This document shows, one piece after another, positions 1,481-7,332 of a DNA stretch of 7,332 nucleotides (its first letter is position 1; each line of letters starts with the position of its first letter). The stretch comes from a virus (Duplodnaviria; Heunggongvirae; Uroviricota; Caudoviricetes): the IMG/VR virus record IMGVR_UViG_2706794686_000014. One strand, written 5' to 3'. The notes under the pieces were generated by a model. It did not search any database. It saw only the letters and a list, made by a program, of their open reading frames with translations, and was not told where the DNA came from. Made by a program: the position numbers and the translations under genes.

Positions 1481-1531
1481 ATAGTATCATGTAAATGAGG
1501 TACTGACAATATGTTAAATAGATGTTAAGAT
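1481..1531. promoter_or_regulatory. Candidate back-to-back divergent promoters sharing the -35 region
   Basis: Plus strand: -35 CTGACA 1503-1508, 17-nt spacer, -10 TAAGAT 1526-1531. Minus strand: -35 TTGTCA (complement of 1504-1509), 17-nt spacer, -10 TACTAT (complement of 1481-1486). ATGTTAA is repeated at 1511-1517 and 1522-1528. Confidence 0.35.
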
Positions 1532-1567
1532 TGTAGTATGAGTAAGAGATTTAAGGAGATTTTTACA

Positions 1568-2294: not shown

Positions 2295-2440
2295 AAACAG
2301 CAAAACATATCTCTCAGGCTTTACCAGACGCACCAGAAACGTTTTTAAGCCCCTAATCAGGGTAACTTAGGGAATCGCCTTAAGTGGTCTAAAAAAGGGG
2401 TTAAAACGTCTTAGAATGCGATACAGGAAGGATTTTAAAA

Positions 2441-2746
2441 ATGAATTACCCAATGCAAATTATGGTTGACCAAGAAACCATGAATTGGTTGATTGACCTG
2501 AACAGGTCGGGCTTTAATATCTATTTCATGCATTGTTTTGAAGCGTCAACGTATATTGACAAGCATATAATCAACGAAATTAAACTTGGTGACTATGTTC
2601 ACAAGCTGGAAGTAACAGACCCATACAATAAGCGCTTTATCATTGAAGAGTGCAATCGACTTGATTTAAGCCCTGAGCAATTATTGAAGCTGAATGTATT
2701 CTTGACCTATCAGAATGAATTAAACCCTTACAGCGAGGTGATGTAA
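2441..2746 (+). CDS. Hypothetical protein, 101 aa
   Basis: Strong SD AGGAAGGA at 2425-2432, 8 nt before ATG 2441. A -10-like TAGAAT lies at 2412-2417. No recognisable domain. Confidence 0.6.
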   Translation: MNYPMQIMVDQETMNWLIDLNRSGFNIYFMHCFEASTYIDKHIINEIKLGDYVHKLEVTDPYNKRFIIEECNRLDLSPEQLLKLNVFLTYQNELNPYSEVM

Positions 2747-2823
2747 TGACACTCGTTATTCTCTGGATGACTTTAGGGTTATTTGTTGGTTGCTGGGTAG
2801 GTAATACGGTAAATAAGAATTGA
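2746..2823 (+). CDS. Candidate 25-aa hydrophobic micro-ORF (MTLVILWMTLGLFVGCWVGNTVNKN), translationally coupled
   Basis: ATG 2746-2748 overlaps the stop of the upstream gene (TAATG), the same coupling used at 948, 1858 and 2079. The product is almost entirely hydrophobic. It is below the ORF-track size cutoff and was found by hand translation. Confidence 0.3.
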   Translation: MTLVILWMTLGLFVGCWVGNTVNKN

Positions 2824-2847
2824 TGTTACCAATCTGTTAAAAAGCTG

Positions 2848-2901
2848 TTGACAAATAACCTTAAGCATGAGATGATGGTAATAGGGAAGAGCAACTCTTC
2901 C
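2848..2901 (+). promoter_or_regulatory. Candidate promoter (perfect -35) followed by a 17-bp palindrome that could be an operator
   Basis: TTGACA at 2848-2853; only weak -10 candidates follow (GATGAT 2871-2876, or TGgTAATAG around 2876-2884). Perfect palindrome GGAAGAG-caa-CTCTTCC at 2885-2901. Confidence 0.3.
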
Positions 2902-2942
2902 TGAATTAAACTATTAATCATTCTACATCAATGATAGTTATT

Positions 2943-2998
2943 CTGAAAGGTGCAATGCTTTTCGCTACATGACCTTTCAGGTTAGTCTGAGAGGTCAT
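2943..2998 (+). other. Two mutually exclusive stem-loops (possible RNA switch or attenuator-like element, or protein-binding palindromes)
   Basis: Stem A pairs CTGAAAGGT 2943-2951 with ACCTTTCAG 2972-2980 (9 bp, 20-nt loop). Stem B pairs ATGACCT 2969-2975 with AGGTCAT 2992-2998 (7 bp, 16-nt loop). They share 2972-2975, so both cannot form at once. Confidence 0.35.
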
Positions 2999-3024
2999 CT
3001 CGAAAAGTACTCTTGTTCATTCGT

Positions 3025-3046
3025 TTGAATCCTTTTTGAATCCTTT
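3025..3046. repeat. Perfect tandem 11-bp direct repeat (TTGAATCCTTT x2)
   Basis: Copies at 3025-3035 and 3036-3046 in non-coding DNA. Checked against a tRNA T-arm and rejected. Confidence 0.5.
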
Positions 3047-3221
3047 AGATGTTTTAATTTCTTCACCTTATGAATGGCCCTTTATAAGAAATTATCTAGG
3101 GCTATTCAGCTTTTAAAAAGCATACTTGGCAAACCGCCTTTTAAGTCTCTTCTAAGTTTAGATAGGCTGTCAGGTGTGCTTTTTAAAAACTGAAACACTT
3201 CCGCTTAGAAGAGGAAAAGCA

Positions 3222-3458
3222 ATGANNNNNNNNNNNNNNNNNNNNNNNNNNNNNNNNNNNNNNNNNNNNNNNNNNNNNNNNNNNNNNNNNNNNNNNNNNN
3301 NNNNNNNNNNNNNNNNNNNNNNNNNNNNNNNNNNNNNNNNNNNNNNNNNNNNNNNNNNNNNNNNNNNNNNNNNNNNNNNNNNNNNNNNNNNNNNNNNNNN
3401 NNNNNNNNNNNNNNNNNNNNNNNNNNNNNNNNNNNNNNNNNNNNNNACAGCGCCTTAG
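3222..3458 (+). CDS. Small protein (about 78 aa) of unknown function; all but the start and last codons are hidden by N block 3226-3446
   Basis: GAGGA at 3211-3215 sits 6 nt before ATG 3222. The same frame emerges from the N block and stops at TAG 3456-3458. The track's GTG 3174 start is less likely. Confidence 0.4.
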   Translation: MXXXXXXXXXXXXXXXXXXXXXXXXXXXXXXXXXXXXXXXXXXXXXXXXXXXXXXXXXXXXXXXXXXXXXXXXXXTAP

Positions 3459-3489
3459 ATTAGATGACGCTTACAGCAAAGTTACCTTG

Positions 3490-3909
3490 ATGCAATCAGC
3501 TATTGAGCCGTCAGAATTTGAGATTCAGGATGAATTGTCACAGAAACCATTTGTCTATTACCAATACGAAGATAATGATGGTTTTGGTACTTTTCAAGAA
3601 AACGTCGCAGCCGTGATTAGTAGTCTTCCTGCTGGACATCGAATTGTGAAGATGGTTAAGGCATCAAGAGGTGCTGGTCAGTTTATTTACATGACTAATA
3701 AGAGCGATGAAGAACTCGCTGAAATTGCTAGACAGAACATCTTGGCATCACGTAACAAGCAACTTGATAATGTTAAGTTGTATCTCTCAAGAGAGCTTCA
3801 GGCTATGAAAGAGCTTGTGAAAGAATATGAAGATGCTAAGAAGATTGCTATGCAGGCTGATATTGAGCAGCTTACGAAGATTTCTAGCAAATATGCAAAG
3901 GCTATTTAA
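3490..3909 (+). CDS. Hypothetical protein, about 139 aa, acidic N-terminal half with a coiled-coil-like C-terminus; possibly a tail-assembly chaperone-like protein given its position
   Basis: Long open frame with codon usage like its neighbours. No SD before ATG 3490 (the track uses TTG 3487), so translation may be coupled to the masked gene. No slippery heptamer or overlapping shifted frame was found that would make a G/GT-type frameshift product. Confidence 0.5.
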   Translation: MQSAIEPSEFEIQDELSQKPFVYYQYEDNDGFGTFQENVAAVISSLPAGHRIVKMVKASRGAGQFIYMTNKSDEELAEIARQNILASRNKQLDNVKLYLSRELQAMKELVKEYEDAKKIAMQADIEQLTKISSKYAKAI

Positions 3910-6514: not shown

Positions 6515-7320
<806 letters not shown>

Positions 7321-7332
7321 TTTGGCATCCAT

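Follow-up and report, generated by a model that had tools for sequence, protein, structure and literature searches.

A conserved promoter and structured leader probably gate the tail-gene operon of a satellite-like island of Escherichia coli

What is the role of a stretch of almost 400 nucleotides (nt) without genes that stands directly in front of a block of tail genes? This question was raised by the gap at 2824-3221 of the 7332-nt DNA filed in IMG/VR as virus record IMGVR_UViG_2706794686_000014 (the whole stretch is called the window hereafter), which lies between the end of a micro-open reading frame (micro-ORF) at 2823 and the ATG at 3222 of a gene for a 236-amino-acid (aa) protein. The original prediction, made from the letters of the window, had described the gap as a palindrome-rich regulatory hub in an otherwise tightly packed genome and had offered a structured RNA or attenuator, repressor operators, and a packaging or recombination site as candidates. 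Our analysis indicates that the gap is probably a promoter followed by a ~340-nt 5′ leader, which would gate the tail-gene operon of a chromosomal island at the levels of initiation, termination, and translation. Four genes make up this operon, coding for the 236-aa protein, a 68-aa protein, a tape-measure protein, and a Dit-like protein. The features listed in the original prediction were all present, at most 1 nt away from the positions given there, and those that hold up form a single unit that is read from left to right on the plus strand. The notion of a hub built on structured RNA was borne out, as the gap contains a conserved promoter, covarying hairpins, hairpins resembling terminators, and a segment that could sequester the Shine-Dalgarno sequence in front of the 236-aa gene, whereas the supposed phage genome proved to be an island of the bacterial chromosome.

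To compare the gap among relatives, 97 distinct full-length versions of the leader were assembled from E. coli genomes, IMG/VR, and metagenomes. Most of them were retrieved with the 18-mer AAGGTGCAATGCTTTTCG, and the invariance of this 18-mer within the set is therefore given by construction. Among 5426 complete E. coli genomes, 478 (~9%) carried the leader region with 70-87% identity, and it was also found in E. albertii and Citrobacter. No conserved ORF was detected within the gap, where insertions and deletions were frequent among the homologues, in agreement with the gene-free nature claimed for it. Small ORFs in the gap were rejected as not conserved; a 39-aa ORF at 3074-3193, for example, needs an insertion found only in the sequence type of the window. 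A scan for tRNA and tmRNA genes returned none. The covariance-model search that the original prediction had proposed as a check yielded no Rfam family at the gathering threshold, either for the window (E up to 10) or for the long variant L001 (E up to 1), and the sole matches were eukaryotic miRNA and snoRNA models far below threshold, reflecting generic long hairpins. In the comparative alignment proposed alongside it, compensatory changes across ~100 homologous copies support the hairpins as well as a pairing between a hairpin loop and the Shine-Dalgarno region. The predicted fold also depended on the strand. The plus-strand RNA of 2883-3225 reached -111.9 kcal/mol (z = -7.8), compared with -92.5 kcal/mol (z = -4.1) for the minus strand.

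A long hairpin, SL4, lies in the 3′ half of the leader (coordinates of this and the other features are collected in Table 1). Both copies of the palindromic motif that the original prediction had noted, GCTTTTAAAAA at 3109-3119 and GCTTTTTAAAAA at 3178-3189 (given there as 3179-3190), are present; rather than being separate sites, they lie in the two arms of SL4. Every one of the 78 distinct variants was predicted to form a helix of 22-30 base pairs (bp) here, although the variants belong to four sequence types and most positions of the arms differ between these types. In a plain MAFFT alignment whose register was checked by hand, 93.1% of the cells were paired, and 14 of the 27 pairs had changed on both sides, whereas controls with slid arms reached at most 52%. 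The covariation score was 0.493, compared with 0.245 in shuffled alignments, and none of 500 shuffles reached the observed value. Furthermore, SL4 contained 206 G-U pairs but only 52 A-C or C-A mismatches, and this excess indicates that the conserved structure is an RNA of the plus strand and not a DNA palindrome.

This RNA signature bears on the proposal that the palindromes act as DNA, be it as an attP, a cos or pac site, a replication origin, or an invertible switch for the small serine recombinase of the island. The many inverted repeats, the presence of two serine recombinase genes, and the TGTTA-type repeats that also fill a 1.6-kilobase (kb) region of phage garuso (MN850566; see below) would fit such a role. 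The stems, however, tolerate G-U pairs and show few A-C mismatches, and the iterons of the island are located elsewhere, at 344-418 in the replication gene. The region is internal to integrated copies of the island: in L001, L002, and L003, it was intact, ~4-5 kb from either end and far from the integrase, which excludes the attP suggested in the original prediction. The suggested cos or pac site found no support either, as blastn with 11-nt words of 2400-3225 against 50,697 phage records gave no match, a search whose reach does not extend to a very short pac motif. An invertible promoter switch was rejected, since 111 of 111 copies had the same orientation relative to their flanks. We therefore regard a DNA-level function of the palindromes as very improbable.

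The apical loop of SL4 carries the segment CUCUUCUAAG, which is complementary at 10 of 10 positions to CUUAGAAGAG (3204-3213), a sequence that overlaps the Shine-Dalgarno sequence of the 236-aa gene. The duplex between loop and 3′ tail had a predicted energy of -13 to -22 kcal/mol in all 78 variants, with a mean z of -3.8 relative to shuffled loops. Moreover, loop and Shine-Dalgarno region changed together, giving the partner pairs UCUCUUCUAAG/CUUAGAAGAGG, UCUUCUAAGUGU/ACACUUAGAGGA, and UUCACCUCU/AGAGGUGAA. Complementarity was retained as either side changed, which is the pattern of a Shine-Dalgarno-sequestering operator.

The same arrangement could also serve a control of the kind known from T4 genes e and soc, for which silent early transcripts are a precedent. 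Transcripts with the full leader would then stay silent, and a late promoter used by a helper phage, placed in the right arm of SL4 (~3168-3200), would yield a translatable RNA. In accordance with this possibility, the A/T-rich right arm separates the anti-Shine-Dalgarno segment, on its upstream side, from the Shine-Dalgarno sequence, on its downstream side, and this arm has kept GTGCT followed by a TA-rich run in every sequence type (GTGCTTCTATAAAT, GTGCTTTTTAAAAA, GTGCTCTATTAAGAA). However, the invariant AGCA/UGCU pairs of the helix explain the conservation of GTGCT equally well, the motif occurs just once in phage garuso, inside a gene, and there is no Felixounavirus late-promoter consensus for comparison. 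A search of phage garuso for a T4-like or GTGCT-type late promoter gave no support. Taken together, we consider this variant improbable.

To see whether the layout extends beyond alignable sequences, more distant islands whose 236-aa proteins are 27-55% identical were inspected. They have the same gene order, with a gap of 390-530 nt. The leader of island L178 could not be aligned with that of the window, yet it contains the same parts in the same order: TTGACA, 17 nt, and TATAAT; a canonical terminator (CAGCCCUC..GAGGGCUUUUU) at the equivalent relative position; and a long hairpin with the loop UUUCCUAUU, which can pair with AAUAGGAAA in the Shine-Dalgarno region of L178 itself (-16.9 kcal/mol, reached by 4 of 300 shuffles). 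The long-range match was weaker in island L173, where 27 of 300 shuffles reached it. That the layout is conserved where the sequence is not provides the best argument for its being functional.

Between the 5′ half of the leader and SL4 lies a terminator-like element, T2, with a predicted energy of -18.8 kcal/mol in the window (z = -5.1). In most homologues, it takes the form AAAGCCCU..AGGGCUUUUUU with an inner helix in between, and AGGGCU followed by 4-7 U. The GCCCU/AGGGC stem was found in 96 of 97 variants, with the run of 4-7 U directly after it in most of them. Long variants of the leader have an additional canonical terminator, T1, ahead of T2, and our terminator scan, a simple one that accepts loops of up to 8 nt, called T1 in L001. 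On the basis of these features, T2 likely terminates transcription in the family as a whole, whereas termination at the copy in the window is uncertain.

Upstream of the leader, the -35 hexamer TTGACA reported in the original prediction is present and is accompanied by a suitable spacer and a -10 element. The promoter of the window matches the sigma-70 consensus at 10 of 12 positions and has an extended -10 element; across the scanned copies, there were 10-11 matches of 12 together with the TG, and the -10 element of most homologues reads TG-n-CATAAT. The -35 hexamer was on the same strand in all 111 copies, and the key -10 positions were invariant. It was the sole sigma-70-type match on the plus strand between the micro-ORF and the ATG. 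With -35 and -10 hexamers at a spacing of 16-18 nt that are conserved among homologues, the element has the makeup of a sigma-70 promoter, and transcription is predicted to start near 2883.

The promoter is preceded by three direct repeats of the TGTTA type, the third of which (TGTTG) runs into the -35 hexamer, and by an A-tract at 2837-2845 that we take to resemble a proximal UP element. In the homologue alignment, the TGTTA repeats were retained where the spacers between them changed. Likewise, TGTTA-N6-TGTTA stands ahead of TTGACA in L173, L174, and L175, with different spacers (TGTTA-TCAGGG-TGTTA-AATATG-TGTTGACA in L174 and TGTTA-ACAAAA-TGTTA in L173). A second promoter of the island, which is nearly invariant, has the arrangement TGTTG-N6-TGTTA-N6-TGTTA (~1500-1537) with the same 11-bp spacing as at the leader promoter, and its two TGTTA copies at 1512 and 1523 extend across the spacer and -10 region. 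The TGTTA repeats are thus candidate operators that probably bind a DNA-binding regulator, and because the same 11-bp-spaced repeat occurs at both promoters, a single regulator for the two is suggested. The repressor operators of the original prediction may accordingly exist in the form of the repeats at 2824-2850; the palindromes to which that role had been assigned are RNA stems.

One such palindrome, the 17-bp sequence at 2885-2901 with the arms GGAAGAG and CTCTTCC around CAA, exists as described, although it corresponds to the stem of SL1 and not to an operator. A hairpin was predicted at the position of SL1 in 32 of 32 sequence variants, with pair swaps from GAAGAG/CUCUUC to GGAGAG/CUCUCU and AGAGAG/CUCUCU. 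SL1 would stand at the very 5′ end of the RNA and may stabilize it. It is followed by a variable spacer, in which some copies have 28-nt hairpin insertions. These ~28-nt insertions are of two distinct kinds, GTTGGTGAGGTATGTTCTATACCGAACA and GAGGATAGTCTTCTATCCGAAGTCTATA (L002 14410-14440 and L007 ~1625-1655; alignment columns 245-275 and 152-180). They are present or absent among variants in several backgrounds and look like small mobile or recombining modules.

Downstream of this spacer, the original prediction had placed two overlapping, mutually exclusive hairpins that could form an attenuator. The arms of both exist (2943-2951/2972-2980 and 2969-2980/2987-2998), but only the second hairpin, SL2, covaries. 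The first was matched by 183 of 500 shuffles, and 2 of its 9 pairs were broken in about half of the sequences, so the attenuator based on their competition is not supported. SL2 was predicted independently in 49 of 49 variants. Pair swaps were observed at 6 of 13 positions, and the mean energy was -15.1 kcal/mol on the plus strand compared with -10.2 kcal/mol on the minus strand. The 50 G-U pairs of SL2 would be mismatches on the minus strand, which again identifies the structure as a plus-strand RNA. In the model-fitted alignment, 98.1% of the cells were paired, 5 of 12 pairs were compensatory, and none of 500 shuffles matched the observed score. The outer helix GCUUUUCG/CGAAAAGU around SL2 had 91% of its cells paired and zero covariation.

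Immediately upstream of SL2 is a conserved 20-nt box with a short stem and the loop UGCAAUG. Its invariance is partly built in at 2947-2964, as these 18 nt were the search pattern. The GAAAGG side has rare variants (GGAAGG). In L174 and L175, which were retrieved via the protein and not via the box pattern, the stem reads AGUAAG/CUUGCU and GGUAAG/CUUGCU, so that pairing is retained around an unchanged UGCAAUG loop. These compensatory changes represent one or two independent events and are suggestive; by the same comparison, SL1 and the box stem are supported more weakly than SL2 and SL4.

With a conserved element, a variable hairpin, and terminators between promoter and genes, the leader could be viewed as a site of processive antitermination of the nut or put type, at which the box and SL2 would either bring in host Nus factors together with an N-like protein or affect the polymerase directly, so that it reads through T1 and T2 into the tail genes. 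This order fits that of lambda pL-nutL-tL1, and the existence of several SL2 sequence types is reminiscent of boxB. However, UGCUUUUCG matches the boxA core at 6 of 9 positions, and about 3 such chance matches are estimated per 340 nt. Among the ORFs of the island, there was no N-like or Q-like protein, Rfam gave no match, and the SL2 type was not tied to the type of the neighboring protein. Antitermination of this type is therefore a rather unlikely function of the leader.

A role of the RNA in trans deserves more weight. In this alternative, ~2883-3114 would be a free-standing small RNA gene whose product acts on targets in the host, the island, or the helper, through base pairing or through a UGCAAUG-binding protein, and the masking of the Shine-Dalgarno sequence by SL4 would be a separate element of the 5′ untranslated region. 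The short PR′-tR′ transcript of Stx phages and the CI RNA of P4 are comparable RNAs. The ever-present strong promoter, the protective 5′ hairpin, and the terminator-like 3′ end are consistent with such a gene, as is the retention of the loop in divergent islands where neighboring stems vary. Complements of the box were searched for accordingly. No conserved complement of at least 9 nt was found in the island, related loci likewise had no conserved site, and a 33-nt query containing the box gave only chance matches to phages (cyanophages and a Helicobacter phage) and none in enteric phages. The left arm of SL4 has an 8-nt match to the box in one sequence type only, and an 11-nt complementarity between the box (2953-2963) and the start-codon region (3214-3224) was rejected because it was not conserved. 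Furthermore, the UGCAAUG loop and the box are absent from L173 and L178, which retain the overall layout, suggesting that the layout outweighs the sequence of the RNA, and no sigma-70 promoter was found downstream of T2, from which it appears that the operon has to be expressed from this very transcript. A small RNA acting in trans is thus possible, though less likely than a leader acting in cis; the two partly overlap, and one RNA could do both.

For the leader acting in cis, the following course of events can be proposed. RNA polymerase would start at ~2883 from the near-consensus promoter, on which a TGTTA-binding regulator probably acts. The plus-strand transcript would fold into the 5′-terminal hairpin, the hairpin with the UGCAAUG loop, and SL2, and most transcripts would end at T1 or T2, which in the copy of the window would give an RNA of ~230 nt. 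RNA that reads through would form the ~27-bp helix of SL4, whose apical loop would cover the Shine-Dalgarno sequence in front of the 236-aa gene, so that this gene would not be translated. The gate presumably opens upon infection by a helper phage. Candidate openers are a TGTTA-binding protein, a factor that recognizes the UGCAAUG loop, cleavage of the 27-bp helix by RNase III, and a transcription start site within SL4.

Comparison of the homologues establishes the conservation of the sequence, the strand of the RNA, the covarying helices SL2 and SL4, and the co-variation of loop and Shine-Dalgarno region, whereas several points weigh against the course of events outlined above. That the promoter is active, that transcripts end at T2, that translation is repressed, and what kind of trigger lifts the block are all inferred. 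The pairing of the SL4 loop with the Shine-Dalgarno sequence needs either a pseudoknot across the 27-bp helix or partial melting of that helix, the feasibility of which is argued from lengths. The SL2 alignment was fitted to the model and hence favors the structure. The window belongs to a minority type of T2 (11 of 97 variants) with an extended stem and a U-run displaced by 2 nt, and 4 nt at the base of SL4 are shared with this stem. The simple terminator scan did not call T2 in the window or in L004; it misses T2 because the T2 loop, which measures 17-60 nt and contains the inner helix, exceeds 8 nt. The types of SL2, SL4, and the upstream ORF assort freely, and no activating factor was identified; owing to this free assortment, no partner protein can be deduced. 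Finally, the conserved UGCAAUG loop could serve a trans-acting role instead.

The proposed leader was further compared with known systems. It is an unannotated example, of unusual architecture, of a known form of control, in which termination in a leader close to the promoter goes together with a Shine-Dalgarno sequence that is occluded. In lambdoid phages, the PR′/6S-StxS/tR′ leader likewise has an ever-present strong promoter upstream of structural genes, a short RNA, and a terminator that must be read through. In contrast, the element described here belongs to a satellite-like island and not to a lambdoid phage; no Q-like gene or Q-binding architecture was detected in the island, a mask of the Shine-Dalgarno sequence is added, and there is no kinship in sequence or in Rfam. 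Operators that hide the Shine-Dalgarno sequence, such as those of the lambda N leader with its RNase III site, T4 e and soc, and rpoS, share with it a long leader helix and an anti-Shine-Dalgarno segment, which co-varies here. They differ in geometry: in the island, the segment is in the apical loop and the Shine-Dalgarno sequence is 3′ of the helix, and this calls for a loop-to-tail pseudoknot or an alternative fold in place of a simple hairpin. The P4 CI RNA and the C4 RNAs of P1 and P7 are also similar in that, in the case of P4, a satellite uses a promoter-proximal structured RNA and premature termination in its own leader. The C4 antisense RNAs constitute the Rfam family RF01695, whereas the leader of the island had no Rfam match and neither the leader nor the island had repeated sites complementary to the loop; of the P4 genes that were looked for, the island shares none.

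Table 1. Positions of the elements of the gap and of related features (window coordinates unless a record is named)
Feature	Position	Strand	Description
Direct repeats	2824-2850	+	TGTTA 2824-2828, TGTTA 2835-2839, TGTTG 2846-2850; 11-bp spacing
Sigma-70 promoter (predicted)	2848-2876	+	TTGACA 2848-2853, 17-nt spacer, TG 2868-2869, GATGAT 2871-2876
SL1	2884-2902	+	8 bp, loop CAA, -9.9 kcal/mol; predicted 5′ end of transcript
Conserved 20-nt box	2945-2964	+	GAAAGGTGCAATGCTTTTCG; 6-bp stem 2945-2950/2958-2963, loop UGCAAUG 2951-2957
SL2	2969-2998	+	12-bp hairpin, loop GUUAGU
Tandem duplication	3024-3045	+	TTTGAATCCTT twice; exact, 11 nt
T2 (terminator-like)	3071-3114	+	Outer stem UGAAUGGCCCU 3071-3081/AGGGCUAUUCA 3098-3108, inner helix, then GCUUUU
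SL4	3105-3194	+	~27 bp; arms 3105-3131/3168-3194; -39.4 kcal/mol, z = -7.2
Anti-Shine-Dalgarno segment	3147-3156	+	CUCUUCUAAG; apical loop of SL4
Translation start of 236-aa gene	3204-3224	+	CUUAGAAGAGGAAAAGCAAUG; Shine-Dalgarno core GAGGA 3211-3215, ATG 3222-3224
236-aa gene	3222-3909	+	Homologues at L001 15371-16078 and L003 9472-10182
Micro-ORF	2746-2823	+	25-aa hydrophobic peptide MTLVILWMTLGLFVGCWVGNTVNKN; left border of the gap
Second island promoter	~1495-1540		(TG)TTGACA, 17 nt, TAAGAT in most copies; CTGACA in window
Island copies	L001 9880-23671; L002 9398-20562; L003 3726-15052		
Phage garuso, 1.6-kb gene-free region	MN850566 48950-50600		
Phage garuso, three regulatory regions	MN850566 12076-12312, 47875-48094, 57600-57812		

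To place the leader in its context, the window was compared with bacterial and phage genomes. The whole window matched E. coli chromosomes with ~90-93% identity. Resemblance to phages was limited to the tape-measure gene and the next gene, which had up to 88-93% nucleotide identity to Felixounavirus over 6-7% of the window; the rest of the window had no phage match. In annotated copies, the matching region is an island of ~11 kb at varied chromosomal insertion sites, with the same layout across many genomes. The first part of the island encodes a small serine recombinase, a Dam methylase, a helix-turn-helix/O-like replication initiator, and several small ORFs; the second part consists of the gap of 390-580 nt, the ~236-aa and ~69-aa genes, the tape-measure gene, the Dit-like "baseplate" gene, and a large serine recombinase gene. 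These assignments were upheld by Pfam and PHROGs. The 236-aa gene, the 69-aa gene, and the small upstream ORFs had no Pfam or PHROGs family, and no capsid or terminase domain was found with these two databases among the ORFs of the island, several of which had no family at all. The window is a degraded copy of an integrative satellite-like island and not a phage.

Its small size (~11 kb), the combination of an integrase with a replication module, and the presence of just two recognizable tail genes make the island look like a phage satellite. The candidate helper is a Felix O1-like virulent phage, since homologues of the tape-measure and Dit-like genes are adjacent genes in phage garuso; the homology of these two genes to Felixounavirus is the sole support for this helper. 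A literature search on the island, or on a satellite of Felixounavirus, found nothing relevant, and the island family is apparently undescribed. A close parallel to the island is the PLE of Vibrio cholerae, a satellite of the virulent myovirus ICP1, which shares the large serine recombinase integrase, the initiator with iterons, the small size, and an apparent dependence on a virulent myovirus. The PLE has another host and another helper lineage, and the tape-measure and Dit-like genes of the E. coli island have their homologues in its putative helper.

The regulatory regions of phage garuso (L171/L172) were also searched for motifs of the island. Its 1.6-kb gene-free region, which lies between convergent genes, contains TGTTA(A/G) repeats at high density, many of them 11 bp apart; a 2-kb stretch has 30 copies, compared with ~1.7 per kb expected from base composition. 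Three large regulatory regions have -35 contexts of the TGTTGACAA type behind A-tracts, as in the promoter of the island, and the leaders are rich in CTTAAAAG and CTTTTAAG, with 23 copies of CTTAAAAG compared with 2.8 expected. In addition, one regulatory region holds the 13-nt palindrome GCTTTTAAAAAGC, identical to 3109-3121 of the window in the left arm of SL4. These comparisons, made by eye on short motifs, weakly suggest that the control region of the island is tuned to the regulatory vocabulary of its helper. As a conjecture that we hold to be unlikely as a whole, the leader may be the infection sensor of an unrecognized family of E. coli/Shigella/Salmonella/Citrobacter satellites that parasitize Felix O1-like phages; a helper factor acting on the TGTTA repeats, the UGCAAUG loop, or the 27-bp helix would switch from the short RNA to synthesis of the tape-measure and Dit-like proteins of the island, which would replace those of the helper as tails are assembled.

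If the proposed function of the leader is correct, it would be the main switch that times the production of tail proteins, copied from a virulent phage, in a widespread mobile island. Annotation is lacking for the island as well as for the RNA, which fits no family of Rfam. The helices supported by covariance could seed a new RNA family and serve as a genome marker for such islands. Furthermore, the TGTTA repeats, the UGCAAUG loop, T2, and the pairing of loop and Shine-Dalgarno sequence are mutable elements through which sensing of a helper can be tested.

The remaining observations concern individual parts of the window and the neighboring genes. The exact 11-bp tandem duplication reported in the original prediction at 3025-3046 is real (3024-3045 is an equivalent register); no meaning could be attached to it, as it is private to the window, with a single copy in every aligned homologue (14 and 30 aligned). 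Two runs of N, at 560-812 (part of the initiator gene) and 3226-3446 (the first ~75 codons of the 236-aa gene), are masked sequence that originates from the data set and not from biology. The Dit-like gene of the window (6577-7332) is a pseudogene. Compared with L001, it has lost 74 bp after ~6724, and at ~7256 the end of an insertion sequence, which also matches many plasmids, takes the place of its 3′ end; the gene for the large serine recombinase, expected after it, lies outside the window. The copy of the island in the window is decaying.

The 236-aa gene is labeled "transposase" in many RefSeq records. The protein had no match in Pfam, in PHROGs, or in a phage tblastn search, and the matches in NCBIfam and PDB were at chance level. 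Its family comprises just 19 cluster representatives, and all of those examined sit in such islands. The label looks like an inherited mis-annotation. The micro-ORF starts within the stop codon of the preceding gene, the two sharing TAATG. Its frame and hydrophobicity are retained across homologues despite nucleotide changes, although RefSeq does not annotate it, and divergent islands have a membrane-like peptide of 21-25 aa at this position. A further ORF of 68 aa is present on the minus strand at 1254-1460, between the 98-aa and 106-aa genes, and is likewise without annotation in the RefSeq copies. Finally, three direct repeats of ~22 nt (ACCCACTGAGTCAAAATTCTTT, ACCCACTGAGTCAAAATTTTTT, and ACTCAGTCAGTCAAAATCTTTG) were found at 344-418 inside the replication-initiator gene; they make up an origin of the iteron type within the coding sequence of the initiator, an arrangement also known from lambda O.

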